Source of the DNA: Ignavibacteria bacterium
GTDB lineage: Bacteria > Elusimicrobiota > Endomicrobiia > PHAN01
Direction: 5' to 3'
DNA: 47,423 bases
Assembly: GCA_041694835.1 (NCBI GenBank)
Contig: JBGFRZ010000052.1
Span: 1-47,423, forward strand
The position numbers and the translations under genes are program-made. Of this stretch, positions 1 to 47,354 are shown piece by piece. Each line of letters begins with the position of its first letter. The stretch's first letter is position 1. The notes under the pieces are model-generated. The model saw nothing but the letters and a program-made list of their open reading frames with translations, was not told where the DNA came from and made no database searches.

Positions 1-132
1 CGGCATTTGTCTAAAGTCATTAAAACAAAAAACTTTCCAAAACTAATTTTTGAGTACGACCCGACGACAAAACGGGCAGCGCGGGTCTTTGAGATTTTCG
101 AGGAACTGGAGAAAGAGAAAAGCAGTATGTAG
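1..132 (+). CDS. rbfA: Ribosome-binding factor A, 3' end (partial)
   Basis: Frame 1 reads RHLSKVIKTKNFPKLIFEYDPTTKRAARVFEIFEELEKEKSSM*, which resembles the RbfA C-terminal P-x-L-x-F-x-x-D segment. It lies directly before nrnA, as in the conserved rbfA-nrnA order. Not in the ORF track. Confidence 0.8.
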   Translation, partial: RHLSKVIKTKNFPKLIFEYDPTTKRAARVFEIFEELEKEKSSM

Positions 133-206
133 TATATAGTAGGTAGTAGGCAGGGAAGACGGATTTTGCTTTATCCCCCCTTACATACTACATGCTACAT
201 ACTACT
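124..206. repeat. Heptamer inverted-repeat element (AGTATGT/AGTAGGT ... ACATACT)
   Basis: Left arm agtatgt agtatat agtaggt agtaggc; right arm tacatac tacatgc tacatac tact. It overlaps the rbfA stop codon. Confidence 0.85.
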
Positions 207-213
207 TAAAACT

Positions 214-1179
214 ATGTCACAAAAAATACTATCACAAATCATTTCCGAAATAGAAAAAGCGAAAACGATTTTTATCGCAGGGCACGCCCGTCCCGACGGT
301 GATACTGTCGGCTCGTCTCTCGCGCTAAAGCACGCCTTAAAGAAACTCGGGAAAAAAGTGGACGTATACTCAAAAGAAATTATACCCGATTATCTCAAGT
401 TTCTCCCCGGCTCGAAATCCATCAGAATTTCATCAGTTCCCGCCTCGAAAAAATACGACCTTGCCATAATTCTGGAGTGTTCGGATCTGGAAAGGATGGG
501 CAATATATTCAAAGCCGGGCAAGCGCAAAAAATAATAAACATAGACCACCATCTTATAAGCAATCCTTTCGGAGATATAAACTACATAGAACCGTTGTCG
601 AGTTCTACATGTTATCAGGTTTACCTGATGTTGAAGAATCTCGGTGTGGACATCTCAAAAGATATTGCCACCTGCCTCTACACGGGAACACTCACCGACA
701 CCGGGAAATTCCAGCAGAAAAACACAACGCCTGAAGCTTACAGCATGGCTTCGGAGCTCCTCAAAAAAGGCATAAATCTGGTAAAAATAAATGATTTTGT
801 CTATGGCAACAGAGCGACTGGGGCGTTCAAACTGCTCGGCGCCGCTCTCACTTCGCTTGAAATTTCGGGAAACGGAAAAGTCGCATTTATGACACTCACT
901 ATGAACGATTTCAAAAAAAATAAAGCCACCCAGTGGGACACTGAGGGGATTATCAACTATCCTCTGAGTATAAAGGGGGTCGGCATCTCGGTTCTTTTCA
1001 GAGAAATAAAAGGCGGCTTTACAAAGGTAAGCATGCGCTCTAAAGGAAACTTTGATTTGACAAAATTGGCCAAACGATTTAACGGGGGGGGGCATAAACA
1101 CGCCGCCGGTTTCACATTGAATAAAAGCATTGAAGACGCGAAAAAAACATTTCTAAAAAATAGAAATAAAATCTCTTGA
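214..1179 (+). CDS. nrnA: DHH/DHHA1 family oligoribonuclease/PAP phosphatase NrnA
   Basis: Motifs HARPDGD, IDHH, TDTG and GGGH. ATG at 214 is preferred because the longer ORF start is repeat-derived. Confidence 0.9.
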   Translation: MSQKILSQIISEIEKAKTIFIAGHARPDGDTVGSSLALKHALKKLGKKVDVYSKEIIPDYLKFLPGSKSIRISSVPASKKYDLAIILECSDLERMGNIFKAGQAQKIINIDHHLISNPFGDINYIEPLSSSTCYQVYLMLKNLGVDISKDIATCLYTGTLTDTGKFQQKNTTPEAYSMASELLKKGINLVKINDFVYGNRATGAFKLLGAALTSLEISGNGKVAFMTLTMNDFKKNKATQWDTEGIINYPLSIKGVGISVLFREIKGGFTKVSMRSKGNFDLTKLAKRFNGGGHKHAAGFTLNKSIEDAKKTFLKNRNKIS

Positions 1180-1204
1180 AATAATCGGATTTTTATGCTA
1201 AATT
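1176..1204 (+). promoter_or_regulatory. Candidate sigma70 promoter for the pilin cluster
   Basis: TTGAAA (1176-1181), 17-nt spacer, then TAAATT (1199-1204) preceded by TG-c (extended -10). Confidence 0.45.
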
Positions 1205-1216
1205 ATGAGAGTTATT

Positions 1217-1578
1217 AACCGCGGAGCGCACGGAGAACATCAAGAATAAAGTTTCAAAATCTTGGCTCTTCTCCAAATGTTGTTGTAACATTGGTTAAGG
1301 ATTTTGCAATATCGCTATGATGTGTGTGGGGTTAATTGTCTGACTATGTATTTTCGCTCATTCTCGTCCCGATAAATCGGGACTGCGAGGTAATCAAGTG
1401 TTCACACTTGATTAAACCCGCTCAAACACTTTGTTTTTATACGCACAACAAAAAATGGAAAAAACCCAAAATCCCTTAAATGTTCAAAAGTTTCAGGGTT
1501 TGAACTTGAAACTATGAACCATGCAACATGAAACTTTTTTAAGGGTTTAGTTCTCTGCGTGTTCTGCGTCCCCTGTGA
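1217..1578. repeat. Nested imperfect palindromic element upstream of the giant pilin
   Basis: Outer 9-mer arms ccgcggagcgcacggagaac and ctctgcgtgttctgcgtcccctgtg. Inner pairs aaagtttca/tgaaacttt and ttaaggattttg/caaaatcccttaa. Central hairpins gtcccga-taaa-tcgggac (1366-1383) and taatcaagtg-ttca-cacttgatta (1391-1414). Confidence 0.7.
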
Positions 1579-4067: not shown

Positions 4068-4587
4068 TAATTAGGGTTCACTGACGCTTCGCTAAAATTC
4101 ACCACAGATTTATTTTTGGACGCAGCTCAATGCCGATTTTGACAAGATTGGCATATCTACCAAATCTGCGAAAGTCCGCGTTCTAAAAAATAATTGAACG
4201 CAGATAGACGCAGATGAAAAAAGATTTGAACCACGAAAGCGTGAAAACACGAAAATACTTGTAAAGAATTTTGTGATTTCTAATTTTCGTGATTTCGTGG
4301 TAAAGTTTTTAATCTGCGATAATCCTGTAAATCTGCGTCCTAAAAAATAATTGAACGCAGATGAACGCAGAAACAACTTTGATAAACGCAGATTAAAGCA
4401 ACTATAAACTCATCTGCAAAAATCTGCGTCCTATTTCTACTTCGTGGCAAGGTCTTTACATTAAGAATAGCAAAAAATCGTGCACTTTGAGCGTTGTTTT
4501 TATAGTTTCAGTTGTTTAATTCTCGTCGTAGTGCTTGAATTTTTAGCATTTTAGTCCCGCCTTGGCGGGATCAGCAGACCCTAATTA
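4068..4587. mobile_element. MITE-like element with terminal inverted repeats and nested hairpin repeats
   Basis: Perfect TIR TAATTAGGGT (4068-4077) / ACCCTAATTA (4578-4587), with further ctga and ctaaaat/attttag matches. Interior carries AACGCAGAT/ATCTGCG and CACGAAA/TTTCGTG repeat arms. No transposase ORF. Confidence 0.6.
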
Positions 4588-5114: not shown

Positions 5115-6395
5115 ATGCTGAAAAACAACAAGGGTCAGTCGTTGGTTATTATTTTAGGGATTTCTCTTTTAATCGCTATTATGATACCGACTATGATTTT
5201 TCTGCTCCATCAGGAAGCCAAATGGACCGTTAAGCAGAAAAAAACCGTCACAGCTTTTCAAATCGCCGAGGCTGGGCTCGACAGGGCGGTATGGAAAATG
5301 AACGAAAACGCTACTAACTGGAGAAACGCCGCACAGGGAACTATCCCCCATGGCTCCGGCTTTGACGGCAATACAACATTCAGCGACGTGGCTGGTGGGG
5401 TGTACAGGATAAAAGTGGCGAGAGTATCGGACACAGAAATAGCGATAATGGCAGCGGGAAGAGATGACGACAATAGAGAGTTAAGAGGTCTATACTCTAT
5501 ATACGGCACCGACTTACTTGATACGAGCATAAGAACTGATGGCAATATATCTATGAGCGGAAACTTTGAAGTTCACTGGGGGCCTATAAAAACAAAAGGG
5601 AATATTAACCTTTCGGGGGCGGCAGAGAAAAGATTCTATCCTAAAAAATACGCGACAGGCAACGTAAATCCCAGAGACACCACGGGCTCTACGCCGCCCA
5701 ACAACTGCACCTGCAGCATTTGCCTCTCGGGAAGTTACAGTGGTCCGGAATGGACATCGCTTGCAACAATTCCAGATATTGAAATTGACCTTGACAGATA
5801 TAAAACACTCGCTCAAAACTACCGCCCGCCACCTGGTTCGCCTACGGGAACAAGCGGCTATAGGGAATCTAATGTTACCTTTAACAACTTCGAGGACAAC
5901 CAGACATCCACAGCGACTTACTATATAAAAGGCAATATGACACTTCAAAATTCATTTATAAGAGGTAGAATAATCGTTGAGGGGAATGCAGAATTTGGAG
6001 CGGCCGGGGGAAAAACAAAGGACAACTATCCCATCATCGTCCCTGCGGGTGCATCAAAACATTATCGCTGTAACAACTTCGGCTCGGTGGGTGGCGCAAC
6101 TGACCCATGGACATTCTGGACAGGACGGGGGTGGGTGGAAAATTCTTCTACAACTCTAAACAAAGTTGCCTTGCACGGATTTTTATTTGCCACGGGTAAT
6201 TTGACAGGGACTGCCAACTCAACAGTGATTGGTGGGGTGGCCATAAAAGGTAACGCTGAAGTTGCCGGGACGCCCGTAGTGTACTACTCACCAACAACCA
6301 TATCGCCGATAGAGTATAAAAATCTGTCATGGCAAAAAACCATATGGAGAGAGTTCCACCCACAAAATTTTACTTCACCAAACTGGCCATATTAG
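5115..6395 (+). CDS. PilX-like minor pilin
   Basis: NKG|QSLVIIL lacks Glu5. AFQIAEAGLDRA is a PilX N-terminal motif. The C-terminus is G/N-rich and beta-helix-like. Confidence 0.8.
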   Translation: MLKNNKGQSLVIILGISLLIAIMIPTMIFLLHQEAKWTVKQKKTVTAFQIAEAGLDRAVWKMNENATNWRNAAQGTIPHGSGFDGNTTFSDVAGGVYRIKVARVSDTEIAIMAAGRDDDNRELRGLYSIYGTDLLDTSIRTDGNISMSGNFEVHWGPIKTKGNINLSGAAEKRFYPKKYATGNVNPRDTTGSTPPNNCTCSICLSGSYSGPEWTSLATIPDIEIDLDRYKTLAQNYRPPPGSPTGTSGYRESNVTFNNFEDNQTSTATYYIKGNMTLQNSFIRGRIIVEGNAEFGAAGGKTKDNYPIIVPAGASKHYRCNNFGSVGGATDPWTFWTGRGWVENSSTTLNKVALHGFLFATGNLTGTANSTVIGGVAIKGNAEVAGTPVVYYSPTTISPIEYKNLSWQKTIWREFHPQNFTSPNWPY

Positions 6396-6575
6396 GACAG
6401 GGAACAGAGGTCAGAGAACAGAGAAGAGAGAAATATACGGGAAGCGGAGAACGCAAAGCGGAAAGCGTAAAGCGTGAAGGGTGAACGGCTTTTAACTCTT
6501 TCCGCTTTCCGCTTTACGGCATTTTATTCTCTCGCCCCTCATCTCTCTCCTCTATTCGCTATTTGCTATTCGCTA
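6394..6575. repeat. Nested heptamer inverted repeats (CAGAGGA/TCTCTC outer, AAAGCGG/TTTCCGC inner, TATTCGC tail)
   Basis: Three distinct 7-nt families are readable directly between the pilX-like stop and the kinase start. Confidence 0.85.
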
Positions 6576-6579
6576 ATTT

Positions 6580-8805
6580 ATGTTTAAAGTAAAACTATAT
6601 CCGAAACTCGCCGCTTTAATGATTATTACAGCATCAGCGCCGGCCATAATAGTCGGGATAAGAACCATCGGAATAAATAGGGTTGGTATGCAGGATGCGA
6701 TATTGGAACTCCACACGACTCTGGCAACTTCCATCTCAAAAAAAATATCGGATCACCTCAACGAGATAGATAGAGAAGTTACGATAGCTGCCAGAAGCCT
6801 GCAATTAAACATAGATTGGCAGGAAAGACACGGAATACTTCAGGCCTTGCTTGACACAAATCCGAGCTTCATATCAATTTCAATAGTCGATAAATCCGGC
6901 AGGGAACTCCTCAAGGCATATAACCCCGACCTTGAAGCGAGCCCCGTCCTTTTAAATCATTCCAAAAACGAACTTTTCAAAAAATTCGTCCGCTCGGGTA
7001 TTCCGTCGGCCGAAACTGAGATCGGTGGCGGTGAAACGATAGTAAAGAAATTCTTCCGACTCACGGCGACACACTCTCTTTTTGTGAAACTTTCCTTAAG
7101 CGTCTTAAACAGCGAGATAGCCGAAACGGAGTTCGCAAGAACCGGTATTGTTTTCGTCGTTAGCGGAGCCGGCGAGCTCATAATGCCAGACGGAGCGATA
7201 AGAAAAATTCTGCCCGAGAACGCAGAACTTAAGGAGCTTGACATCGTAAAAAAATCCCTTACAGCAGATGCTGTCGGCTCAGCGGAATACCTATCTCCTG
7301 TCGGGAAAATGGTCGTCGGGGCTTTTGCCTCGGTAAAAAACGTTGGTTGGGGGGTGGTCGTTCAACAGGATAAAGACGAAGCTTATATCTCTGTCAAAAG
7401 GATGACAAGAAATACAATCCTGTTGACTATAATCAGCGTGATTGCGGCGTCTTTGCTCTCATTTTTTCTGGCGAGGGGGCTGACACGTCCGATAGAGCGT
7501 CTGGATGCGGCGGCCAAAAACATATCCAAAAGAAATTTCGAAATATCAGGACAGCTCTCTAATATAAAATCCAAAGATGAAATAGAAGACCTGGCGAAGA
7601 CTTTCAGCTCGATGGCGGAAGAGCTTAAAAAATACGATGAGATGCAGCTCGACAAAATACTCGCCGAGAAAACGAAAACCGAAGCGGTAATATTTTCGAT
7701 TCTTGACGCGATAATCATGACGGACGCGGAAGGAAACATACAACTCTATAACGACCAGGCAAAAAAAACATTGAAATTGCCCGAGAAAGAAGTTATAAAT
7801 ATGCCGGTGTGGGAGTTTATAAAAGACGAAAACCTGAAAAACGCTTTTGATGATGTCGTCAAAAATCCAAAAAGCCAGGCGAAAGAGGTAATGGTGGTAG
7901 AGGGCGCCGTATCCAATTATTACAAAGCATCCTCAAACATCGTCGAACATCCTCAGAAAAAATCCCCCATAGGCGTTGTAACCGTACTTCGCGACATCAC
8001 CCTTGAAAAAGAAATCGACGAGATGAAAGAAACCTTTCTCCACTCAATCACACATGACCTTAGAAACCCGATGACTTCTATAAGAGGTTTCTTGAAATTT
8101 CTGAAAGACGGGGTTGGCGGACCTGTGACGGAACAACAGAAAAAGATGCTGGACACAATGGACCGTTCTTCTCAAAAACTACTTTCGATGATTAACGACA
8201 TACTTGACATAGCAAAACTCGAATCGGGCAAGATGGAACTAAACATTGCGCCAACGAACATAGTTCAAATCGCAAGAAACGCAGCGCAGATGCTGGAGGG
8301 AATGTTCGCAAAAAAATCAATACATTTCGACATAGATGCCTCCGATGACCTGGAGGCGCCTATAAAATTCGACGGCGCGCTCATGGAAAGGGTTTTCGCA
8401 AATCTTCTCTCAAACGCCATTAAATTTACACCGGAGGGTGGAAAAATAACGATAGAGCTCAGAGGACAGAGGACAGAGGACAGAGAACAGAGGGCAGAGG
8501 AAAACCTCTCATCTCTCACCGCTCACCGCTCACCTCTCACCTCTGACCTCTCACCTCTGTCCTCTGTCCTCTCTCCTCTCGCCTCTATAATAGTTTCCGT
8601 TATTGACACCGGCGAGGGCATTCCACCCGATTACGTGGACAAAATTTTTAATAAATTCCAGCAGGTCGACGGACGGAAAAGGGGCGGGACGGGACTTGGT
8701 CTGACTATATGCAAATACATTGTAGAAGCGCATGGCGGGAAAATCTGGGTTGAGTCAAAATTAGGCGAGGGCTCGAAGTTTTCATTTACACTACCGATTG
8801 TTTAG
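6580..8805 (+). CDS. Membrane sensor histidine kinase (Cache-HAMP-PAS-HisKA-HATPase) with a repeat-derived insertion
   Basis: Two TM segments, H-box [10 protein letters not shown]-box [15 protein letters not shown] and GTGLGL. Confidence 0.92.
8452..8588. repeat. In-frame heptamer hairpin element inside the kinase
   Basis: (AGAGGAC)n-AAAA-(CCTCTCA/CCTCTGT)n encodes [42 protein letters not shown]. Confidence 0.9.
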
Positions 8806-8812: not shown

Positions 8813-10372
8813 ATGATAGAACAGCAGGGCAGTAGAGCAGTAGAGCAGCAGAAATCAGGGGTCAGAGCGCAGAAGTTTTTCTGCTATTTGCTATTCGCTC
8901 TTTACTATTCGCTGTCCCCTATCCCCTGCATTTCTGCAGCCGAGGTGCTGCAAGAGATAACCGTAAAGGAAGGCGACACGCTTTGGGGCGTTTCGAACCA
9001 CTATCTCAAAGATTCAAAAAGATGGTCGGATATCCTGAGACACAACCCGCAGCTTTCCAGCGATCCCAATGTTATTCTGCCCGGGATGAAAATAAAAGTG
9101 CCTATCCTTCTAATTAAAGAACACTTGAGGGCGGCGTATCTTGTCTATATTCTTGAAGACGTCAGATACAGAAGAAGAAAGGAGGCGGATTGGCGAAGGG
9201 CTTTGTTAAATATGGAACTTTATGAAGAAGACGGTATCAGAACGCTCGAAAAATCCCAGGCTAATGTAAAATTTCCGTCGGGAGAAATCTTAAAATTATA
9301 TGAAAACTCGCTTCTTATAGTAAGACCGGAAAAACCCAGGGAAGAAGCGGAACTTTTATCCGGTCAGGTCAGGGCGTCAAAAACAAAGATTCTCACCGCC
9401 GACACCGTCGTAAATCCGAAAATCATCGCAAAGACAGATGCCCCGGATTTCAAAACAAAAATTAAGGAAGACAAAACCACATTGGTTGAGGTCTATAAGG
9501 GAATCATAGACGTTACCGCTCAAGGAAAAACTGTAACGGTTAAAGAGGGGTTCGGAACGGAAGTTAAATTCAAAATGGCACCGGGCTCGCCCATCAAACT
9601 TCCGGAAATGCCCGATTTTGCCGTGGATTTGAAGGAAACGAGAGTTTTATCGGCGAAAGAAAGGAAGTTCGAGCTTGCCGTAGAGACGCCCGAGACCACG
9701 CCGAAAGCCCTGAAGAAAGACGCGGAAGCCCCTGCAAAAGAAAAACCGTCGACTAAAATCATCGGCGGGACGGTCAAAAAATACCGTCTTCAAATCTCCA
9801 CGACTGCGTCTTTCTCGAATATCGTCTTGGACGAGGTAAAAGATATAAAAGGGAGGGTTTCCATCGACTACGCAGATTTGAAACTCAACGACGGACTTTA
9901 TTTCTGGAGAATAGCGTATATGGACGAACTCGGCTTTGAGGGCAGATTTTCGCAACCGAGCAGTTTTGTTATAGACACGATTCCCCCGGAGATAAAACTA
10001 ATTTCGCCCGTAGATGGCGGGGAATACGACACGGATTTTATTTATGTCGAAGGAATTACAGAGCCAAACACAAACCTGCTTGTAAACGGCGTTCCGACAA
10101 ACATCGAAGATAACGGACAATTCTTGTATGCCATACTTGTAAAAGACAAAGATGGGGTTGTCAAGATAAAAGTAGAAGCAACGGATTCGGCCGGCAACCT
10201 GACCGTCGTCGAAAGGAGTGTTCTGAAAGTTAGAAAAGGGAAAGCGCGAAGAACAGACATTTCGGGGTCGCAAGAGAAGCCAAAAAAGCAACCCGCTTCA
10301 ACCACCATGGCCATCGCGGCCGCAACAATTTTTGTAATACTTGGCGTTATTTGGATTATAGCGGGATTATAA
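8813..10372 (+). CDS. LysM + FecR-like + Ig/Fn3-like exported protein with C-terminal membrane anchor
   Basis: LysM motif ITVKEGDTLW...ILPGMKIKVP. FecR-like EDGIRT...LYENS and VEVYKG..DV. DTIPP and ATDSAGN Ig-like motifs. Hydrophobic C-terminus. Confidence 0.8.
   Translation: MIEQQGSRAVEQQKSGVRAQKFFCYLLFALYYSLSPIPCISAAEVLQEITVKEGDTLWGVSNHYLKDSKRWSDILRHNPQLSSDPNVILPGMKIKVPILLIKEHLRAAYLVYILEDVRYRRRKEADWRRALLNMELYEEDGIRTLEKSQANVKFPSGEILKLYENSLLIVRPEKPREEAELLSGQVRASKTKILTADTVVNPKIIAKTDAPDFKTKIKEDKTTLVEVYKGIIDVTAQGKTVTVKEGFGTEVKFKMAPGSPIKLPEMPDFAVDLKETRVLSAKERKFELAVETPETTPKALKKDAEAPAKEKPSTKIIGGTVKKYRLQISTTASFSNIVLDEVKDIKGRVSIDYADLKLNDGLYFWRIAYMDELGFEGRFSQPSSFVIDTIPPEIKLISPVDGGEYDTDFIYVEGITEPNTNLLVNGVPTNIEDNGQFLYAILVKDKDGVVKIKVEATDSAGNLTVVERSVLKVRKGKARRTDISGSQEKPKKQPASTTMAIAAATIFVILGVIWIIAGL
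8822..8929. repeat. 8-mer (AGCAGTAG) and 7-mer (CTATTCG) repeats within the LysM gene 5' end
   Basis: cagcagggcagtagagcagtagagcagcaga ... ctatttg ctattcg ctcttta ctattcg ctgtccc ctatccc. Confidence 0.8.
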
Positions 10373-35583: not shown

Positions 35584-35623
35584 ATTGTCTCCTATGAAGT
35601 TAGACGGAAAACGGTAAACAGTT

Positions 35624-35780: not shown

Positions 35781-35806
35781 CTGAACTCCATTTGCATTTT
35801 ACATTA

Positions 35807-35848
35807 AACTCCGCAACTCTCAACTCTAATCCTTCACCTCTCAACTTT
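35807..35848. repeat. Heptamer run (CAACTCT) between infA and rpmJ
   Basis: caactct caactct aatcctt cacctct caacttt. Confidence 0.65.
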
Positions 35849-35855
35849 GTCTTCT

Positions 35856-36125: not shown

Positions 36126-36132
36126 AATAAAT

Positions 36133-36891: not shown

Positions 36892-37553
36892 CTATTCTGT
36901 TTGCTTCGCTCTAAATTTTCTTTTACGTTCAAAAAAACATCATCTATGCTTTTCGCTCCGTCGATTTCCACAAAACCAACCGGCATATTTCTTTTATAAT
37001 ACCCGATAAGAGGAGCGGTGCTTTTTCTGTATACCATCAAACGTTCTTTAATTACAGATTCGGAGTCGTCTTTGCGAATCATCAGAGAGCTGGCGCAATC
37101 GTCGCAGACTCCCTCTTTTTTCGGAAAAGGGCCCGTGAGTGTGTTGTAATTCTTTCCGCATGACGGACACGTCCTGCGGGAAGTAAGGCGACGTATAACT
37201 TCGGTGTCGTCTATATCAATATATATAACAAAATCTATTTTTTCCCCGATAACTTCCAAAAGTTTTAATAGTCCTTCGGCCTGCGCCACAGTGCGCGGAA
37301 AACCATCAAAAAGATATCCCGAATCAGCTCTTCTTTCGAACACACCTTTTATCGTCTCAAGGACGATATCGTCCGCAACGAGGCTGCCACTATCAAGCAA
37401 TCCTTTTATTTTGTTCCCGAGCGGGGTGGCTTTTCTAATCTCATCTCTGAAAATATCACCCGTCGAGATATGAACCAAACCAAACTCTTCTATAAGACGC
37501 TCCGCCTGTGTGCCCTTTCCGGCGCCTGGAGCACCCAAAAGAATTATGTTCAT
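36888..37553 (-). CDS. adk: Adenylate kinase
   Basis: GAPGAGKGTQ, DGFPRT and a Zn-binding LID (CPSC...CDDC). Confidence 0.96.
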   Translation of the reverse strand: MNIILLGAPGAGKGTQAERLIEEFGLVHISTGDIFRDEIRKATPLGNKIKGLLDSGSLVADDIVLETIKGVFERRADSGYLFDGFPRTVAQAEGLLKLLEVIGEKIDFVIYIDIDDTEVIRRLTSRRTCPSCGKNYNTLTGPFPKKEGVCDDCASSLMIRKDDSESVIKERLMVYRKSTAPLIGYYKRNMPVGFVEIDGAKSIDDVFLNVKENLERSKQNS

Positions 37554-38878
37554 CTTGCGTTGAACCATCTGCCCTTTATTCTTCCTTGTTTCATAAAGCC
37601 TTCGTAATGTCTCATAATAAGACGCGACTCTATCTGACTAATGGTATCAAGCGCAACACCGACGACTATAAGCAGCGATGTGCCTCCGAAGAAGAACGGA
37701 GCGTTGAATATCTTCCTCATATAATCGGGAAGTATCGCGATCGCCACAACCCCAATCGCTCCGCCGAGCGTTATTCTTTCGAGAATCCTTTGAATATATT
37801 GGGCGGTGTGATCGCCAGGGCGAATGCCGGGGATAAAGCCACCGCTTTTCTTCATGTTTTCGGCAAGGTCGTTAGGATTGAATGCGACCGAGTTGTAAAA
37901 ATAGCAGAAAAATATTATGAAGCCCGCAAAAATCCCCTCATAAAGCAGCCCGCCGCGGTTCCATATATCTGTAAATCTCTGTGCCCATACAGCATTTGGA
38001 AAAAATTGCGTAAGCGTCATTGGCAGGGAAAGAAGCGAAACGGCGAAGATAACGGCTATAACTCCCGACTGCTCGACTTTTAGAGGAAGAAATGTGCTCG
38101 CCCCTCCATACATCTTTCTGCCGATTATCCTTTTTGCGTACTGAACCGGTATTTTTCTCTGAGCCGTCTCAAGCCAGACCACCAATCCCACAACCACGAC
38201 TACAACCGCTAACATAATTATCACGGTAATAATTGATATTTCTTCTATTCTCAAAAGGCGTATAACGTCTTTAACTGCCGCCGGGAACTTGTCGATAATC
38301 CCTGCAAAAATTATCAGCGATATGCCGTTCCCTATGCCGAATTCGGTTATCTGTTCTCCAAGCCACATCACAAATATCGTCCCGACAACAAGGGTAATCA
38401 CCGCCATTATCGTCCAGCCGACGGATGGATCCAGAACGATGCTTCCACCTCCGGGAACGGGCATTTTCGTTATGGCAATGCTGAGCCCGAAAGCCTGAAC
38501 GACCGCAAGCAAAACGGTGAAGTATCTCGTAAGTTGGTTGATTTTTTTTCTTCCGGATTCGCCCTCTTTTGAAAGCCTGTCAAGATAAGGAAGGATATGT
38601 GCCCCCTGAAGAAGAGACATTATTATGGAAGCGTTGATATACGGCATTATTCCGAGCGAAAAAATCGAAAGCTGGCTCAATGCTCCGCCGGAAAACATGT
38701 CCATAAACCCCATAAGACTTCTTGAGTGCGCCTGAAAGAGATTTTTCAGCGCCTCGGCGTTAACGGCCGGAAGGGGGATTATGGCGCCGAGCCTGTAGGC
38801 GGCTATCACTCCCAAAGTAACAAATATCCTGTTCTTAAGCTCTGGTATCTTGAAAATATCGCCGAAAGATTTTATCAT
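37550..38878 (-). CDS. secY: Preprotein translocase SecY
   Basis: LGIMPYINASII, GIGNGISL, IPGIRPG and GGTSLLI motifs. Confidence 0.98.
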   Translation of the reverse strand: MIKSFGDIFKIPELKNRIFVTLGVIAAYRLGAIIPLPAVNAEALKNLFQAHSRSLMGFMDMFSGGALSQLSIFSLGIMPYINASIIMSLLQGAHILPYLDRLSKEGESGRKKINQLTRYFTVLLAVVQAFGLSIAITKMPVPGGGSIVLDPSVGWTIMAVITLVVGTIFVMWLGEQITEFGIGNGISLIIFAGIIDKFPAAVKDVIRLLRIEEISIITVIIMLAVVVVVVGLVVWLETAQRKIPVQYAKRIIGRKMYGGASTFLPLKVEQSGVIAVIFAVSLLSLPMTLTQFFPNAVWAQRFTDIWNRGGLLYEGIFAGFIIFFCYFYNSVAFNPNDLAENMKKSGGFIPGIRPGDHTAQYIQRILERITLGGAIGVVAIAILPDYMRKIFNAPFFFGGTSLLIVVGVALDTISQIESRLIMRHYEGFMKQGRIKGRWFNAR

Positions 38879-38880
38879 AA

Positions 38881-39318
38881 TTAGATCTCTTCGACGTTTC
38901 CGCCGGCGGATTTAATTTTACGAGCGGCTTCTTTTGAAAATTTTTCCGCTCTGACATCGAACTTCTTTGTTAGATTTCCGCCGCCCAAAACTTTGAGAGG
39001 GAGACCATTTCTGATGACGCCTTTCTGAACCAGTGCCCCTCTGTCTATTTTTGCTCCGTTTTCAAAAAGAGCCTCCAACGTGCCCACATTGACGAGCGAA
39101 TAATCTTTTGTGAATATGTTGACAAAGCCCCGTTTCGGTATAAGACGCACAAGAGGGGTTTGACCGCCCTCAAAACCGTTCATTGAAGCGTCGCCGCTCC
39201 TTGCGGTCTGACCTTTCCCGCCCCTTGTCGAGGATCTCCCGTGAACCCCGCCTCGGCCGACGACCTTTCTTTTATGTTTCGAACCATTAGCGGGCTTCAA
39301 CTGACTTAGCAAACTCAT
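38881..39318 (-). CDS. rplO: 50S ribosomal protein L15
   Basis: GRGG, FEGGQTP and PKRGF motifs. Confidence 0.96.
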   Translation of the reverse strand: MSLLSQLKPANGSKHKRKVVGRGGVHGRSSTRGGKGQTARSGDASMNGFEGGQTPLVRLIPKRGFVNIFTKDYSLVNVGTLEALFENGAKIDRGALVQKGVIRNGLPLKVLGGGNLTKKFDVRAEKFSKEAARKIKSAGGNVEEI

Positions 39319-39336
39319 TTTACTCTCCGTTATTCC

Positions 39337-39813
39337 TTAAGTTTTTGTTCTTATCTTTTCAATCTCCGACTGCGTCCTGAGCTGCTTCAACGCTTCTATC
39401 GTGGCATAGACGACATTGAACGCACTGGCGGAGCCGAGAGATTTTGTTAGTATATCTTTTATTCCGACCGCTTCCAGAACCGCTCTAACGCCAGGGCCGG
39501 CTATAACGCCGGTGCCTGGCGACGCCGGCATCAATAAAACTTTTCCCGCGCCATTTGAACCTGTGACCTCGTGGGGTATGGTCGTTCCTTTGAGAGATAC
39601 TTTTACCATCGATTTCTTTGCCTTAGAGGCGGCCTTGGAAATAGCGGACGGCACCTCCTTCGCCTTTCCAAGAGAGCATCCTACAGAGCCCTTCCCGTCG
39701 CCCACGACGACAAGTGCGTTGAACGAAAACCTCTTGCCGCCCTTGACGACTTTAGCGACGCGATTTATCACAACCGTTGTCTCTTTTAGCGCCTGTGTTT
39801 CCTGATTTTCCAT
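39337..39813 (-). CDS. rpsE: 30S ribosomal protein S5
   Basis: RVAKVVKGG and GTGVIAG motifs. Confidence 0.97.
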
Positions 39814-39828
39814 TTATTCTTCCTTAAT

Positions 39829-40197
39829 TTAGAATTCCACGCCCGCCGAGCGAACTGCGTCGGCAAATGTTTTTACAACCCCGTGATATTTGTATCCCCT
39901 TGTGTCGAAAACAACTTTTTTTATCCCGAGAGCGACAAGTTTCTTCCCGACCGCCGCTCCAAATTTGACAGCAGCGTCTTTGCTTTTTTTTGACTTTAAC
40001 TCCTTAAAGTCATCTTTTTGTAAATTCGGCCTTGTCGATAAAAAAGCGAGCGTTTTCAAGGATGTATCGTCGATAACCTGGGCATAAAGATGCTTCAGGC
40101 TCTTTTTAAGGCAAAGCCTCGGCACTTCATTTGTGCCCGATATATGTATCCTAACGCGATTGGCCCTTCTTTGAAATTTTTCTTTTGCTGTAAGCAT
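39829..40197 (-). CDS. rplR: 50S ribosomal protein L18
   Basis: PRL, YAQVIDD, VVFD and YHG motifs. Confidence 0.95.
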   Translation of the reverse strand: MLTAKEKFQRRANRVRIHISGTNEVPRLCLKKSLKHLYAQVIDDTSLKTLAFLSTRPNLQKDDFKELKSKKSKDAAVKFGAAVGKKLVALGIKKVVFDTRGYKYHGVVKTFADAVRSAGVEF

Positions 40198-40210
40198 TTT
40201 TTAATCCTTC

Positions 40211-40804
40211 TTATTTGGTTCCGCCGGCGGCGGCGCCTGCGGCCGCTTTTCCGGCTTTCTTTATTATTCTTTCGCCTTTATATCTTATGCCTGTGCCCTT
40301 GTAAGGCTCGGGTGGCTTTATGCTTCTTATGTCCGCGGCGAATTGACCCACTTTGTATTTATCTATTCCGGATATGGTCAAAAGCGTCTGCTTGGGATCG
40401 ACGACAACTTTTAAACCATCCGGTATCTCGAGCTTTACGGGATGTGTAAACCCGACGGAAAAATTTATCTTTTTACCTTCCAAAATGGCATTAAAACCGA
40501 TGCCATGTATCTCGAGTTCCTTGCTAAAACCCTCGACAACACCCTTAATGGCGTTTTTCACAAGAGCCGCGAAAAGTCCGTGAAGAGATTTAGACGACTT
40601 TGAATTGTTAAGTCTTTTAAGTTGTATTTGCTTGCCGTCAGACCGACCGTCGGAGGGTTTTGACTCCATTATTTCAAGCTTAATAGATGGATTGAGCGTT
40701 TGCTTTATAGAACCGAGCGGCCCCTTCACCTCAAGTGCGTCGTTGCTTAAATTCACCGTAACTTTTTCGGGCACCTTTATTGGTTTTTTTGCTAATCTGC
40801 TCAT
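40211..40804 (-). CDS. rplF: 50S ribosomal protein L6
   Basis: MSRLAKKP, KGPLG and PEPYKGTG. Start at 40804, since the longer ORF start is repeat-derived. Confidence 0.96.
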   Translation of the reverse strand: MSRLAKKPIKVPEKVTVNLSNDALEVKGPLGSIKQTLNPSIKLEIMESKPSDGRSDGKQIQLKRLNNSKSSKSLHGLFAALVKNAIKGVVEGFSKELEIHGIGFNAILEGKKINFSVGFTHPVKLEIPDGLKVVVDPKQTLLTISGIDKYKVGQFAADIRSIKPPEPYKGTGIRYKGERIIKKAGKAAAGAAAGGTK

Positions 40805-40883
40805 ATATTTATTCACTCCACTAACATAGATACGAGAAACAAGAGTGATAGAAGAATAAGAAAGACATGGCACTAACTCCATA

Positions 40884-41030
40884 GTGCACAAGAGCGCAAG
40901 GGCACAAGAACACAAGTCAGGGCAGCAGAGCAGCGGTGGCTCGTGGTTCGTTTCATCCAGTCACCAGCCACCATCCACTATTCGCTATTTGCTATTCACT
41001 ATACGCTATTCTCTCACCTCTCACCTCTAT
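40884..41030. repeat. Dispersed repeat element between rpsH and rplF
   Basis: 40892-41028 matches 26686-26822 with 4 mismatches over 137 nt (manual alignment). Confidence 0.92.
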
Positions 41031-41429
41031 CTACCAAACATAACCTATCACTTCGCCACCGAGTTTATTTGTTCTCGCGTTTGCGTCCGTCATAATGCCT
41101 TGCGGGGTTGATATTAAAACTACGGCCATTCCTCTTTTTATAGCGGGAAGTTCTCCGCTTCTTCTATAGACCCTTTTGCCGGATTTGCTTATTCTGTGTA
41201 TTTCTTTGAGAACCGGTTCCTTATCCTGGGTATATTTAAGATATACCCTAAGAATTCCCTGCTTATAATCGTCGATTACCTTGTAATTGCTTATGAATCC
41301 CTCCTCTTTCAGTATTTTTGAAAGTGCTATTTTAACTTTAGACGCAGGGACGTCAACCTTCTCCTTTAATTTTCTGTTCGCATTTCTTATCGCTGTAAAA
41401 AAATCCGCTATCGGGTCTGTTATAGGCAT
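41031..41429 (-). CDS. rpsH: 30S ribosomal protein S8
   Basis: DPIAD, ILKEEGFI, STPQG and GGEV motifs. Confidence 0.97.
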   Translation of the reverse strand: MPITDPIADFFTAIRNANRKLKEKVDVPASKVKIALSKILKEEGFISNYKVIDDYKQGILRVYLKYTQDKEPVLKEIHRISKSGKRVYRRSGELPAIKRGMAVVLISTPQGIMTDANARTNKLGGEVIGYVW

Positions 41430-41478
41430 ATTATTCGCTCCACTCATATAGAGGCGAGATTACGGAAATCAGAGCACA

Positions 41479-41558
41479 AGGCACAAGGGCACAAGTGCAT
41501 AGTAGTTTATAGTAGTTCGCTATTTGCTATTCACTATTTGCTATTCGCTATCCTCTAT
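41479..41558. repeat. Repeat element between rpsN and rpsH
   Basis: gcacaag gcacaagg gcacaag followed by ttcgcta tttgcta ttcacta tttgcta ttcgcta tcctcta. Confidence 0.85.
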
Positions 41559-41559
41559 T

Positions 41560-41745: not shown

Positions 41746-41760
41746 TGAAACTCCTGATTT

Positions 41761-41818
41761 CGTGGCTTGTGGCTCGTTACTCGTGACTCGTTTTTCCCAG
41801 TCACCAGCCACTAATCAC
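41761..41818. repeat. GTGGCTC/CAGCCAC heptamer hairpin between rplE and rpsZ
   Basis: gtggctt gtggctc gttactc gtgactc gtttttcc cagtcac cagccac taatcac. The core is shared with 26730-26766 and 40936-40972. Confidence 0.85.
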
Positions 41819-41824
41819 TTTTAT

Positions 41825-42402: not shown

Positions 42403-42714
42403 TCAAAGTATTACTTCTGCGCAATTCTTGCAAATCCTGACTTTTTTCCCGTCTGAAAGTTTATCGAACTTTATGCGAGACGGACGGCTGCACTTCGGAC
42501 ATACAACTACCAACTTTGATAATTGAATGGGCCTTTCAAGGTCGACGATTCCACCCGGTTCTTTCTGCGTTGGTTTTTTGTGTTTTTTCGCTATATTTAT
42601 TTTGGAAACAATGGCAGTCAGTTTATCGGGAAACACTTTTAAAACTTCGCCGGTTTTTCCCTTGTCGTCACCGGATATGACGAACACCTTGTCTTTTTTC
42701 TTTAATGTCAGCAT
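42403..42714 (-). CDS. rplX: 50S ribosomal protein L24
   Basis: KOW motif DKVFVISGDDKGKTG and KKHKKP. Confidence 0.96.
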   Translation of the reverse strand: MLTLKKKDKVFVISGDDKGKTGEVLKVFPDKLTAIVSKINIAKKHKKPTQKEPGGIVDLERPIQLSKLVVVCPKCSRPSRIKFDKLSDGKKVRICKNCAEVIL

Positions 42715-43709
42715 CTATTCGCTCCACGATTTCTGTTTGAAAGATATTCCCTTCTTTCTTCCAAAAATGTTAATTGTGATGACAATAGGTCATATTCAAT
42801 TTTACCAGATTTTTTGTCGACATCTTGTAATGTTATGAGATTATTATATGTTTTAAGTTTTTCAATAGATTTGTTGACAAAATATTTATTTATATCGCAG
42901 CCGATAAATTTTCTATTGTAGGCAATAGACAATTCAAGCATTGTTCCCGAACCGAGAAATGGTTCAAAGACGGTATCTCCATCATCGGTTACAGCCAACA
43001 ACAATCTTTTTACTATTTTGCTCGGGAAAGTTGCTGTATGACCGGATTTTGGTTCAGGAGATGCGAGCCAAACCTGATTATCTAATCTCAATTTACCACT
43101 TTGACCAATTACCATAAATGCCCTTGAATTAAATTTATATTTCCCTTTCTTTGTGAAATGCAGTATGTACTCGGCACTTTGTCTGACTCTATCTTTAACA
43201 TTTTCTGGCATTGGATTTGGTTTCTCCCATATTATCTGCTGTCTCCAAATATATCCTTTATCCACCAATCCAATTGCAATCCTGTACGGTATGCCACATA
43301 GCGATTTATTTTTAATTATATCGTGCCGCGCTGTTACCGAACTTGTATTTCCCTGCCCCCTTGAATCCAGCCCGTGTCGACGATATGATACATCTTTATT
43401 GTGTTCCCAATGATTATGATGTGCCCTTGAAACACCGCTCCCCATATAACTGTCTTGAATGACGACGAAAAGTGAACCGTCATCTTTCATAATTTCCAAA
43501 AGTTTTGCAAATAACTTTACATTTTTATTGATGTAATCTTCTAAACTCTCAACACCAAATTCTCTTCCGTCGTCGGTAAAACTCCGTTTGCCCCAATAAG
43601 TGGGACTCGTAATAACTGCTTGAATTATATTTTGGGGCAACTCTTGAATGCACTCAAAAACATCCGAACAATACAACTTTATTTTTTTATCAGAATATAT
43701 CAAAGACAT
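42708..43709 (-). CDS. Site-specific DNA methyltransferase, N4-C/N6-A, beta-class order
   Basis: Catalytic motif IV variant TSPTY near the N-terminus. IIWEKPNPMP and HTATFP. SAM-binding EPFLGSGT near the C-terminus. AT-rich relative to the flanks. Confidence 0.92.
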   Translation of the reverse strand: MSLIYSDKKIKLYCSDVFECIQELPQNIIQAVITSPTYWGKRSFTDDGREFGVESLEDYINKNVKLFAKLLEIMKDDGSLFVVIQDSYMGSGVSRAHHNHWEHNKDVSYRRHGLDSRGQGNTSSVTARHDIIKNKSLCGIPYRIAIGLVDKGYIWRQQIIWEKPNPMPENVKDRVRQSAEYILHFTKKGKYKFNSRAFMVIGQSGKLRLDNQVWLASPEPKSGHTATFPSKIVKRLLLAVTDDGDTVFEPFLGSGTMLELSIAYNRKFIGCDINKYFVNKSIEKLKTYNNLITLQDVDKKSGKIEYDLLSSQLTFLEERREYLSNRNRGANRC

Positions 43710-44428
43710 TTTCCCACCATTAAATTACCGATGTCCTGATTGTTTGCTTGTATAACGGTATGTTTCTCGGGATATGCTAAAGCGCACTTAATACAATCGC
43801 TTTTATTACAAACATTGCATATTTTATTTTTCTCTGCATTGATATATACAGATAAAACCTGCCAATTATCCAAATCATCTTTTCCACCTTTTGAGATAGG
43901 AACCCGGTGGTCATATGTTGGAATCACTAATGACTTGCAAAAATAATGAACATCTTTTAATCCGCGATTTAAGACAATGCTCGTAATGTTACATCTCCCT
44001 TTAAAATTGTTAAATATTTGAACTTGTTGTTTGGCGGTTAAACCTCTGCGATATTCAGGTATTGATAAAGCAATAAATCGAGAAGTGTCTATATGACCGT
44101 AATACTTAAAAAGTTTTTCAATGTCCAATTTCAAATTCATTACCCTTTTTTCGTCTCTTTTCTCAAGTAAAAAATTTCCAAAGCCATTACCGAGCCTCAA
44201 ATCAGAATGTGCCCTATTAGGGTCATTTAGAATCCCGTCTAATCGATGAATATTGATAAAATTTGGATACGCTTTTAAAAGTTCTTTCAGCACAGTAAAA
44301 GCTCTCTTTATTTTCAACTGAAACTTTAATACCTTGTGGTTATACTCTATTTCAATCTGCTTTTTCTTTTTGCTCAGTATTTTATAACTATAATTCTTCA
44401 TAATAACTTTGGTCATAGCACGTACCAT
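43700..44428 (-). CDS. HNH endonuclease, probable cognate restriction enzyme
   Basis: DHRVPISKGG..DNWQVL...N..KN HNH core followed by CNVC...CIKCALAYPE. Overlaps the MTase start. Start codon uncertain (44401-44431). Confidence 0.8.
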   Translation of the reverse strand: MVRAMTKVIMKNYSYKILSKKKKQIEIEYNHKVLKFQLKIKRAFTVLKELLKAYPNFINIHRLDGILNDPNRAHSDLRLGNGFGNFLLEKRDEKRVMNLKLDIEKLFKYYGHIDTSRFIALSIPEYRRGLTAKQQVQIFNNFKGRCNITSIVLNRGLKDVHYFCKSLVIPTYDHRVPISKGGKDDLDNWQVLSVYINAEKNKICNVCNKSDCIKCALAYPEKHTVIQANNQDIGNLMVGKCL

Positions 44429-44451
44429 CAATTAACAAAGCATCAAACACT

Positions 44452-45787: not shown

Positions 45788-46522
45788 CTATTCTTCTATT
45801 ATACCCTCAACGGGAGGTTTTGAAGCATCTGTCTCAGAAAGTTTTTCTTTATCAACGGGAGCGACATCGGCCATCAAATCAGCATCGGTCTTTTTGAAAT
45901 GCTCCTTCCTAAAAATCCACACTTTTACTCCTATGTTGCCGAGTTTGGTTCGGGATTCGGCGAATCCATAATCTATATCCGCCCTGAACGTGGCCAGTGG
46001 AAGCCTCCCTTCCTGAAGCCACTCTGACCTGGCTATCTCGGCGCCGGCAAGACGCCCGGATACCTTTATTTTTATTCCTTCGGCTCCCGAGGCAAGAGCC
46101 TTTTCAATCGCTTTCTTCATCGCTCTTCTGTACGCTACCTGTTTTTCAATAGCGAAAGCAACGGATTCGGCAACAAGCTGAGCATCTATCTCCGGCTTTT
46201 TTATCTCAAGGACGTTTATTTCAACATTTTGATTTGTCAGTTCCTGAATATCTGTCTTTAAACGTTCTATTTCAAGGCCCTGCCTTCCTATGACAACACC
46301 GGGTCGCGATGTAAGAATTATTATCTTAAGATATTTCCCGGCGCCCATCCTCTCAATGATTACTTTGGATATCCCTGCGCCATAAAGTTTATTTTTTATG
46401 AATTGTCTTATTTTAAAGTCCTCTTCTATCCAGAGCGGAGCGTTTTTCAGATCAAACCACTTCGAGTCCCAATCTCTTATATAGCCAAGCCTTAACGATT
46501 TAGGATGAACTTTTTGTCCCAT
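45788..46522 (-). CDS. rpsC: 30S ribosomal protein S3
   Basis: MGQKVHP, RPGVVIG and [10 protein letters not shown] motifs. Confidence 0.98.
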
Positions 46523-46542
46523 AAAAACTCCAAGTGTTTGCG

Positions 46543-46875
46543 TTAATTTATTTTATCACTTAAAATTATTGTAAGATGGCACGTCTTCCTTCTATAAGGC
46601 ATGCCTCGGCCCATAGGTCCGGCTCTAAACCTTTTCAAGAAAACGCCTTTCCCCACCGAAGCTTCTTTGATGAAAATATTCTTGGGGTCGGCGTTCTTGC
46701 CGATGTTGGCAAATGCGCTCTTGAGCGTTTTTTCGACTACTTCCGACGACACTTTCAACGTAACTGAAAGTGTTGTAAACGCATCTTGTACGGATTTATT
46801 CCTTATAAGCCCAAGAATCTGATTGACTTTTCTCGGACTGTATCTGACAAATCTGGCAATTGCTTTTGATTCCAT
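46543..46875 (-). CDS. rplV: 50S ribosomal protein L22
   Basis: RYSPRKV, KSAFAN and CHLTI motifs. Confidence 0.96.
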
Positions 46876-46883
46876 ACTGTTTT

Positions 46884-46943
46884 AGAGATGAGAGGTGAGA
46901 GGTTTTTCCCTGACCTCTGTCCTCTGTTCTCTGTCCTCTGCTT
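46884..46943. repeat. Heptamer hairpin between rpsS and rplV
   Basis: gagatgagaggtgagaggtttttccctgacctctgtcctctgttctctgtcctctg. Sister of 17171-17216 and, reversed, of 8467-8523. Confidence 0.88.
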
Positions 46944-47231
46944 CTATGTCAACTCTGTCGCTTCTTTCGTATGAGCGGCGCCGTGGCCCTTAAAGAACCT
47001 TGTGGGTGCAAACTCGCCGAGTTTATGCCCCACCATCTGTTCGGTCACATAAACTTTGATGAATTTTTTTCCGTTGTGAACCTCAAAGGTATGCCCCACG
47101 AAGTTGGGCGTTATCGTGCAAGCGCGTGACCATGTTTTGAGCGGCCTCTTCTGCCCGTCCTGAATCATCTTTTCGACTTTTCTATTAAGTTTTTCGTCCA
47201 CATAAGGACCTTTCCATACTGAACGACTCAT
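46944..47231 (-). CDS. rpsS: 30S ribosomal protein S19
   Basis: [14 protein letters not shown] and GHKLGEF. Start at 47231 with a GGAG RBS. Confidence 0.97.
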
Positions 47232-47354
47232 AATTATTCGCTCCTCTTCGCTTCGCTCACATAGAGAATAGAGCACAGAGATTAAAGATTAGTAGATGAA
47301 AATTTTGGTAATAGCCAAAGAAAACGGACTAAAATTATGCTAAAATAAGACATT

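Follow-up and report, generated by a model that had tools for sequence, protein, structure and literature searches.

Short-period tandem repeats stand at gene junctions of core operons throughout a 47,423-bp contig of an Elusimicrobiota genome, which raises the question of what kind of element they represent and how they came to occupy such sites. The contig (C56) was analysed as a whole and is referred to as the window. It belongs to a draft genome (G000) of 1.9 Mb in 89 contigs, 97% complete; its SecY is closest to those of Endomicrobiales/Elusimicrobia metagenome-assembled genomes (61–72% identity), and a metagenome scan with Adk as the query gave a best match of 49% identity, close kin not being found. 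A look-up of sequencing runs matching window positions 31300–41200 listed none. An earlier note on the window had described the repeats as inverted-repeat arms at 17 junctions and as empty or non-autonomous members of a mobile hairpin system. The answer that we prefer, with a probability put a little above even, is that the junction repeats belong, as gene-less members (non-autonomous or decayed), to a family of small hairpin cassettes with polar arms. In a full cassette, the host stop codon is followed by a purine arm of tandem 7–10-nt words, a promoterless small gene, a pyrimidine arm of complementary words and finally the host gene downstream. The small gene encodes an Avd-like four-helix-bundle protein (PF05635/TIGR02436) or a PD-(D/E)XK GxxExxY protein.

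Tandem Repeats Finder (TRF) reported 68 rows in the window, 40 of them with period 7. In 30 shuffles of the window within 200-nt blocks, period-7 rows averaged 0.93 (maximum 3) and rows of all periods averaged 7.1. All window spacers of at least 50 nt were also read by eye. Arrays were found at 16 of the 17 named junctions, 14 of them clear in TRF and two recognized by eye (19271–19329 and 41746–41824); after the nrnA-like gene only a weak AACATGA run was present (1503–1534; 4.4 copies, 73% matches, score 34), and no other of the 17 junctions is as weak. That the arrays are an artefact of assembly or binning, or chance low-complexity sequence, is exceedingly improbable. The genome is a draft of many contigs, and repeats often break assemblies, but the arrays are found in the interior of long contigs, with intact conserved genes on both sides, 40 period-7 rows stand against 0.9 in shuffles, open reading frames (ORFs) remain open through in-frame arrays, and the same design was found in five other genomes.

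Genome-wide, TRF reported 2216 rows, namely, 800 of period 7, 403 of period 8, 198 of period 10 and the rest of other periods. They reduce to a few dozen words, about 20 of which coexist. After removal of near-homopolymer units and merging of neighbours no more than 80 nt apart, 898 clusters were obtained, spanning 54,019 bp, or 2.8% of the genome. The word families named for the window recur throughout the genome, as the numbers of arrays per word indicate (ACAGAGG 50, AAGAGCAC 47, AATAGCG 42, ACGAGCC 41 and AACGCAGATG 36). The arrays fit the definition of heptanucleotide simple sequence repeats, that is, tandem heptamers concentrated outside coding sequence: intergenic DNA accounts for 52% of array bases and for 15% of the genome. 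These figures rest on our own ORF calls (n = 1503; a greedy heuristic, at least 100 aa), for which distances to start codons are rough.

Arrays occupy 256 of 1258 co-directional junctions, and in 29% of these they start no more than 5 nt from the stop codon; a cluster starts between −12 and +5 nt of the stop in 94 of the 1503 ORFs. The observation that arrays begin on or near the upstream stop thus extends to the whole genome. The array ends no more than 5 nt from the next called start in 14% of the 256 junctions, and no peak of start-codon abutment at 0–6 nt was found against the local null. Among the 76 genes with an array-abutting stop, 34 end on TAG, as do 289 of the 1503 ORFs overall; arrays therefore often provide the stop codon. 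Of 335 clusters of at least 40 bp (the 563 shorter ones were dropped), 43 lie entirely within ORF interiors, and some of these are true protein repeats. Both the targeting of transcribed junctions, as originally proposed, and the survival of harmless insertions give the same pattern, and the two cannot be separated.

Period 7 dominates (800 of 2216 rows), as in many bacteria according to the excerpted texts of two studies (PMC4679880, PMC4692102). This suits a simpler explanation, in which the arrays are ordinary slippage microsatellites growing in place, with no copying between loci, and the words shared with cassette arms are a coincidence. We consider this rather improbable, for reasons that begin with the cassettes themselves.

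The earlier note had stated that no TIGR02436 or TIGR04256 gene is present. This is true of the window, where no PF05635/TIGR02436 ORF was found, but profile matches in the genome comprise 14 TIGR02436 four-helix-bundle genes and one TIGR04256 GxxExxY gene, all on other contigs, and cargo-filled versions with the same arm words thus exist in this genome. A purine arm lies upstream in all 12 inspected four-helix-bundle loci, and the small ORF begins about 25–35 nt beyond it. The upstream host gene often ends on a TAG whose AG is part of the first arm unit. A complementary pyrimidine arm follows 0–30 nt past the ORF stop in 11 of the 12 loci, the twelfth (C7_23403) being cut by the contig end. 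The TIGR02436 arm pairs include GAGCACAA/CTTGTGC, GAATAGC/CTATTCG, GTGGCTNG/CACGAGCC and AGTAGAT/ATCTACT. The GAGCACAA/CTTGTGC arms are common to four proteins that are 89–100% identical, while eight other four-helix-bundle proteins (28–52% identical) have one distinct word each, namely, GAATAGC, GTGGCTNG, AGTAGAT, GAGAGTAA, GGTAAAG, GGGTTGGA, TTAGCGAC and GGGTGTAG. Four of the cassette words belong to families already listed in the window. The GxxExxY gene lies between two AAACACAGAT and two ATCTGTGT words; in Pfam its product is PDDEXK_3, of the PD-(D/E)XK nuclease superfamily, a family listed as of unknown function (PMC3424549). The 27 ORFs that neighbour the 14 cargo genes all point the same way as the cargo, and of 15 word-matched brackets enclosing 180–1500 nt, eight hold a four-helix-bundle gene or its remnant.

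The same arrangement was found in relatives. Nine of ten cassettes inspected in the genomes G001, G002, G053, G212 and G286 are purine-arm-first with matching words. The proteins associated with AGTGG words in G212, G001 and G286 are mutual best matches at 54–65% identity; retention of the word alongside a protein that has diverged this far would be unlikely for neutral DNA. The association of words with protein lineages across genomes argues against slippage. Cassette design, polarity, one word per protein lineage and sense-oriented cargo are direct observations. The number of four-helix-bundle copies is 14 in this genome, then 9, 6, 4, 3, 2 and down to 0 among 16 genomes, and the data weakly suggest that it roughly tracks the array load of the ribosomal-protein operon in 12 relatives (G053, G212 and G286 not among them), which are few and related genomes.

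Conservation of words with a protein at 50–65% identity also speaks for another explanation, that the repeats serve the host as mRNA stabilizers, processing sites or translation insulators. The four-helix-bundle paralogues would then be word-specific regulators, each word would define a regulon, and copying would be incidental. The position of arrays in essential operons, close to stop codons, agrees with this, as does the composition of the sense strand in co-directional junctions, where purine arrays number 333 (182 + 151) and pyrimidine arrays 174 (106 + 68), with 126 mixed arrays set aside. We regard a host-serving role as unlikely, though clearly less so than slippage. Arrays occur also within coding regions, and terminator-like sites, sought in a terminator/promoter scan, are not enriched at arrays (21 vs 18.1 ± 3.3). 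One hairpin is present in the window in both orientations to transcription, at 17145–17225 and 46884–46943, with an identical centre.

Two cassette regions deserve separate mention. The AATAGCG-armed four-helix-bundle genes at C6:3802–4122 and C6:5831–6083 are decaying (an in-frame TGA and a split over two frames, respectively), which indicates that cassettes erode in place. In the region C52:36800–48300, a number of cassettes, differing in their words, lie behind paralogous genes for secreted proteins, which end in ...IVVAR*, and the successor genes begin with arm-encoded putative signal peptides ending in ...CLYA; this region could be a hot spot for cassette exchange between paralogous junctions.

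Polarity is the most general property of the arrays. Among the 335 clusters, the purine-rich block comes first in 155 and the pyrimidine-rich block in five; 175 are ambiguous, and many are one-armed. Purine-first order reads alike on either strand, and the polarity is therefore a genuine asymmetry. In G053, a distant member of the same phylum, a 340-kb sample contains 15 purine-first, no pyrimidine-first and ten ambiguous clusters. The order of a purine arm followed by a pyrimidine arm, claimed for the window, holds as such a rule, except that the arrays at 34723–34761, 35624–35665 and 35814–35846 are one-armed. A ratio of 155:5 is not expected from slippage. Purine-first order may reflect the way in which arms are formed, or merely which arrangements are harmless.

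The ability of the arms to pair was analysed in 133 clusters of 40–300 bp with a clear purine/pyrimidine switch point. The mean RNA folding energy is −47.1 kcal/mol for native sequences and −36.1 kcal/mol for arm-wise shuffles (median z −2.7; z < −2 in 62%). In the innermost purine/pyrimidine pair, 6-mer overlap is 0.184 vs 0.064, and it reaches at least 0.3 in 18.5% vs 7.4% (n = 146). Of 13 window elements, 11 have a more stable predicted fold than their dinucleotide shuffles (z −1.6 to −7.5); that most elements fold is likewise in line with a host-serving function.

Copying between loci was demonstrated for two gene-less elements of the window. The first is a 143-nt nested hairpin (4195–4340) with outer words AACGCAGAT/ATCTGCG and inner words CACGAAA/TTTCGTG (folding energy −41.4 kcal/mol, z −5.49). 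The genome contains 24 copies of at least 135 nt, 89–100% identical, whose ends are sharp and whose outer flanks are unrelated. Frequently a copy adjoins further modules of its own kind; in the window, a second AACGCAGAT/ATCTGCG module (4341–4445) adjoins the hairpin, and most aligned copies likewise have this module behind the 143-nt core. The 30-mer of the right arm has 33 matches in this genome (19 exact) and none in 30 relatives. The left end of the element aligns to the cassette arm upstream of the PDDEXK_3 gene (score 35 vs 16.5 ± 2.8; 0 of 500 shuffles) and its right end the downstream arm (22 vs 13.8 ± 2.4; 5 of 500 shuffles), so that by their ends the two look like a non-autonomous/parent pair. 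The cassette with these related ends encodes the PDDEXK_3 protein and not a known transposase. As a short, non-coding sequence with terminal inverted repeats and dispersed near-identical copies, the 143-nt element answers to the description of miniature inverted-repeat transposable elements (MITEs).

The second element is the composite module of the rpsH/rplF junction (40883–41030), to which the MITE description applies in part. It has the order GCACAAG_n, TCAGGGCAGCAGAGCAGCG, GTGGCTC_n, loop, AGTCACC_n, CTATTCG_n, CTCTCAC (fold z −2.52). The module recurs at 26683–26827 (96% identical) and in at least 12 further places. Fourteen near-full-length copies could be aligned at 68–97% identity; they share a non-repetitive core and an idiosyncratic order of degenerate units, while unit counts vary. 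Copying and slippage are therefore both at work. Differences in unit number between otherwise identical copies are what slippage would produce, but non-repetitive cores and degenerate unit orders that are 89–100% identical at unrelated loci are not explained by growth in place. Of the mobility asserted for the whole set of repeats, copying of these two elements is what the data show. The proposal that earlier insertions are reused as landing sites fits the abutting copies of the AACGCAGAT element; a second-shell test of heptamers gave no signal (n = 22).

Comparison with relatives revealed presence or absence of arrays rather than fixed spacers at orthologous junctions. In the ribosomal-protein operons of 12 relatives, the junctions occupied here have short, mostly empty spacers, and the window words were found at these junctions in none of the 12, which is difficult to reconcile with a service to the host. 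Two genomes of one genus carry arrays at different junctions, namely, rplX–rpsZ in G001 and rplO–rpsE and rpsH–rpsZ in G002, and the ribosomal-protein operon of G025 has its own octamer family. The pattern of three successive AGAGGAC words was found in four of 301 sampled Elusimicrobiota genomes (130, 19, 17 and 3 matches), none of the same class; such a patchy distribution also speaks against a host-serving role.

An occupied/empty pair was identified as well: a 496-nt four-helix-bundle cassette in G002 corresponds to a 4-nt spacer in G001, with sharp borders of a kind that slippage does not account for. Beyond this site, the two sequences align again only from the mature portion of the downstream protein; ahead of it, G001 encodes MKRMFSATIAVTAALGIIFSAAAPSRA before AFKENIW (the native signal peptide), and G002 encodes MKILKKILLLLFLLLPIAYPLYPA before FKENIW. 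In the G002 version, the hydrophobic stretch is encoded by the pyrimidine arm, and the start codon (ATG) overlaps the stop of the cargo gene; read by eye, the pyrimidine arm appears to re-code a putative signal peptide. Three cassettes in the genome studied are followed by the same arrangement of an arm-encoded N-terminus. The empty counterpart of a G001 cassette was not recovered when its flanks were searched in the fragmented G002 assembly. Duplicative spread of two gene-less elements, lineage-specific presence and change of unit number between copies are thus observed directly.

Other rearrangements of the ribosomal-protein operon were noted in the same comparison. In the two closest relatives, G001 (C12) and G002 (C294), rplE no longer stands between rplX and rpsZ but has been relocated to the rplO/secY junction, and an AGTGGAT/ACTATCC heptamer hairpin stands in G001 at the site vacated by rplE. 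Insertions of 3.9–5.8 kb were found between secY and adk in G028 and G030, and one of about 2 kb between rpsE and rplR in G005. In the window, rplN and rplX are separated by an insert of two genes on the reverse strand (42708–44431), one for an N6_N4 DNA methyltransferase (PF01555, 137 bits) and the other for a protein of 243 aa that matches HNH weakly. The insert has a lower G+C content (0.37–0.39) and is missing from this operon in all 12 relatives; it looks like a restriction-modification cassette inside the operon.

Several results weigh against the cassette interpretation. When arms were swapped between loci, the mean folding energy was still −44.0 kcal/mol, and the native combination was lower in 87 of 131 cases. 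Exact 7-mers common to a cluster's own arms numbered 3.51, compared with 3.64 for swapped arms, and second-shell arm pairs showed no matching signal (n = 22). Gene-less arrays are word mosaics, and their two arms often consist of different words. AGAGGAC, the commonest word, and AAAGCGG have no cargo gene in the genome. A search of the genome tied no transposase, reverse transcriptase or target-site duplication to the arrays.

The lack of partner matching in gene-less arrays is also what slippage would predict. Of the inverted repeats originally described, what stands is that the arms pair better than arm-wise shuffles, with an excess in the innermost pair; pairing specific to the partner does not (3.51 vs 3.64). 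Strict inverted repetition was dropped as a defining feature because the exact 7-mer partner test gave no excess, and the general rule is purine-first polarity, not complementarity. Nesting of families is clear at 4195–4340 and 6396–6530 and is not a general rule.

A G212 cassette beside an AGAGGAC array was considered as AGAGGAC cargo and rejected, as its arms consist of other words. Synthesis of the arrays by a reverse transcriptase, in the manner of telomerase or of diversity-generating retroelements, was rejected because a profile search found no RVT_1 match in this 97%-complete genome. No consistent target-site duplication was seen in aligned flanks; T|A occurs at four GAGCACAA cassettes and not at others. 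A partnership with a REP-associated tyrosine transposase (RAYT; REP, repetitive extragenic palindrome) was rejected as well, since the sole Y1_Tnp gene, on contig C41, is flanked by its own GGGGACGGTCCTC inverted repeat, with 3 + 2 genomic copies. This transposase-like gene of the HUH type (C41:8757–9467) encodes 236 aa, and its inverted repeat GGGGACGGTCCTCAATT is unrelated to the arrays.

If the repeats are gene-less cassettes, they would persist because they do little harm where they land. The purine arm would often supply the host stop codon TAG, and the pyrimidine arm, open in all frames, could be translated into a loop or signal peptide. Of 325 pyrimidine arrays, 69% are free of stops in all frames; of 311 purine arrays, 38% close all three frames and 33% contain no stop at all. 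A word that is free of stops on both strands, as AGAGGAC is, can be accommodated in frame within a protein. In the operon transcript, the paired arms could be a substrate of RNase III, like rRNA intervening sequences; the genome encodes RNase III (rnc), and since the arms can pair, such processing is possible. Copying would take place on DNA, through conversion from junction to junction that a nuclease starts or recombination drives, and cassette proteins may help it in trans, the four-helix-bundle protein binding its own word. We put forward only tentatively, as an unlikely proposal in its full form, that the four-helix-bundle proteins are putative word-specific nucleic-acid binders, each with a 7–8-nt word of its own, that drive the seeding, growth or copying of purine-first arrays, and that the GxxExxY protein, a putative nuclease, does likewise for hairpins of 10-nt words, with no transposase or reverse transcriptase involved.

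The remaining elements of the window illustrate the range of forms. Most of the gene names given to the window agree with profile matches, namely, the nrnA-like gene (DHH/DHHA1), the pilin (N_methyl), the kinase, MoaC, RibF, EF-G, RodA, MreB, S19, S14-Z, L6, IF-1 and S11; the 426-aa gene called pilX (5115–6395) has no Pfam match, and rbfA is truncated at the edge of the window. Ahead of the nrnA-like gene, TRF detected a purine arm of AGTATGT/AGTAGGT (124–148) and a pyrimidine arm of ACATACT (182–205), which together (124–205) fold at −31.0 kcal/mol (z −4.26). The ORF of this gene was called from 166, and its DHH domain begins at residue 34, so that the ACATACT arm probably lies upstream of the true start. 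The composite after the 426-aa gene (6394–6575, by TRF) comprises purine AGGACAG and AAAGCGG followed by pyrimidine CTTTCCG, CTCTC and CTATTCG; its array begins on the TAG stop, and the part at 6396–6530 folds with z −2.99 and an inner stem of AAAGCGG/CTTTCCG.

The placement of elements at junctions holds for most of them, but two are translated, one inside the kinase gene and one in the N-terminus of the next gene. The former (8460–8586, forward strand) is an in-frame insert of six CAGAGGA and 12 ACCTCTC units in the HATPase_c domain of a histidine kinase and has a strong predicted fold (−65.0 kcal/mol, z −7.52). The ORF is open through the 42-residue insert, and the Pfam HATPase_c match is split, resuming at residue 669, which is profile position 37. 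The latter (8817–8913, forward strand) is a TAGAGCAG/TGCTATT array which, according to the ORF translation, forms the N-terminus of a LysM/FecR protein. From the ATG at 8813, the protein has a polar stretch, then the hydrophobic FFCYLLFALYYSLSPIPCISA and then LysM; the array-encoded N-terminus reads by eye as a putative signal peptide.

A TAAGTGG run lies on the moaC stop, and runs of CTATTTG, ACATACT and TACTATC fill the distance from there to the start of ribF (16162–16289, by TRF; fold z −1.96). After ribF, a GAGAGGT/CTGTCCT hairpin with a TTTTT loop and an unpaired CTATNCG tail was found (17145–17240; −41.9 kcal/mol, z −4.88). The EF-G/glycosyltransferase junction contains a short element of AGGATAGG and three CTTGTGC units (19271–19329), which TRF missed; the profile match of the glycosyltransferase starts from residue 15. 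The rodA/radical-SAM junction is filled by a 248-nt composite (26613–26860, by TRF; fold z −2.71) of AGGACAG, GAGCACAA, GTGGCTC, CCAGCCA, CTATTCG and CTCTCAC. RodA itself (26861–28204, reverse strand, 447 aa) has a FTSW_RODA_SPOVE match broken into two parts, suggestive of an inserted segment; no TRF array was found there. The composite after mreB (31440–31631, by TRF; fold z −3.87) consists of AGAGAAT/AGAGGAT followed by CCTCTCG, CTTGTGC and CTCTATT.

In the ribosomal-protein operon, TRF detected three solo runs, all on the reverse strand. The rpsK/rpsD run (34723–34761), with three GTCATTC and two ATCTACC units on the forward strand, is purine-rich on the mRNA, and the region 34697–34783 folds no better than dinucleotide shuffles (z +0.78). 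Six CTTCTAC units (GTAGAAG on the mRNA) directly follow the rpmJ stop (35624–35665; fold z −2.41), and a CAACTCT run (AGAGTTG on the mRNA) follows the infA stop (35814–35846). The infA gene (35856–36125, reverse strand) encodes 89 aa, with about 17 extra residues that split the IF-1 profile match and are not heptamer-built; a long form (95 aa) is present in G001 too, while most relatives have 72 aa. The rpsZ/rpsH junction has three GCACAAG units and then six TTCGCTA units (41474–41559, by TRF; weak fold, z −1.63). A core hairpin of GTGGCTC/CCAGCCAC lies between rplE and rpsZ (41746–41824), and the called rpsZ ORF has its S14-Z profile match from residue 23. The rpsS/rplV junction contains an AGAGGTG/CTGTCCT hairpin with a TTTTT loop (46884–46943, by TRF; fold z −2.87).

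Among known systems, intervening sequences of 23S rRNA in Leptospira and Coxiella carry an S23p/PF05635 ORF, and their stem is a substrate of RNase III. They are similar to the cassettes described here in that a PF05635 protein (121 bits in the cassettes) is encoded between complementary terminal arms in a transcribed unit. They differ in that the cassettes occupy junctions of mRNA operons, flanked by protein genes, with no Rfam family detected at the gathering score in the window or at 13 cargo loci, and in that the arms are purine-first tandem 7–10-nt words and most members are gene-less. Correia elements are cut by RNase III. These elements, REP sequences and bacterial interspersed mosaic elements with their RAYT partners, and REPINs resemble the arrays in being short, non-coding, hairpin-forming and present in many near-identical copies after operon stop codons, and in that copies adjoin earlier copies; REPINs are described in an excerpt of the source (PMC3116915). 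Unlike REP/RAYT systems and MITEs, the arrays have no transposase partner, the Y1_Tnp gene having a different repeat; their candidate partners are PD-(D/E)XK and four-helix-bundle proteins, and their word arms vary in length. Palindromic elements of Rickettsia, ascribed to Ogata et al. in 2000, are reportedly inserted in frame in genes. The insert in the kinase HATPase_c domain is similar as a hairpin repeat tolerated in frame, but there is no sequence relation, and the elements studied here are built of 7-nt words and also re-code putative signal peptides.

Short tandemly repeated repetitive sequences of cyanobacteria are heptanucleotide tandem repeats; the array words presumably differ from those of heterocystous cyanobacteria. 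Heptamer repeats and the arrays have in common period 7, location between genes, variable unit number, differences between close relatives and a scattered distribution among phyla. Examples are the GGGNATC heptamers of Xanthomonas and Nostoc (PMC4692102) and the TAACTGA heptamers of Beggiatoaceae (PMC4679880), both in excerpted accounts. In these excerpts they are one-word direct repeats, with no polarity rule, complementary arm or link to a gene family; the genome studied here has about 20 words, purine-first order and cargo genes. PF05635 is described as Avd-like in part of a further source (PMC10053308). The cargo protein shares with diversity-generating retroelements a weak match to bAvd (PF22296, 35.7 bits, below the 40-bit cut-off; NF033474, 35 bits), but no reverse transcriptase was found in the genome, nor a template/variable repeat pair. 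The literature searched contained no description of the cassette design or of polar word arrays linked to these gene families. The cassette family is best seen as a variant form of hairpin mobile elements or of cassettes like rRNA intervening sequences.

Over-representation of heptamers in bacteria has been known for decades, without an accepted cause, and an excerpt of one study records the absence of detailed literature on heptamer repeats as of 2015 (PMC4692102). PF05635 and PF13366 are widespread small families with no function known outside diversity-generating retroelements. The present genome links heptamer words with both families, as the same words are found in cassette arms and in gene-less arrays. 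If the proteins recognize their own words, this would provide a testable mechanism for the excess of heptamers in scattered phyla and would represent a protein-programmed propagation of repeats free of transposase and reverse transcriptase. The cassettes would then be a new selfish element, harmless by design inside operons, which remodels gene junctions, enzyme loops and signal peptides.

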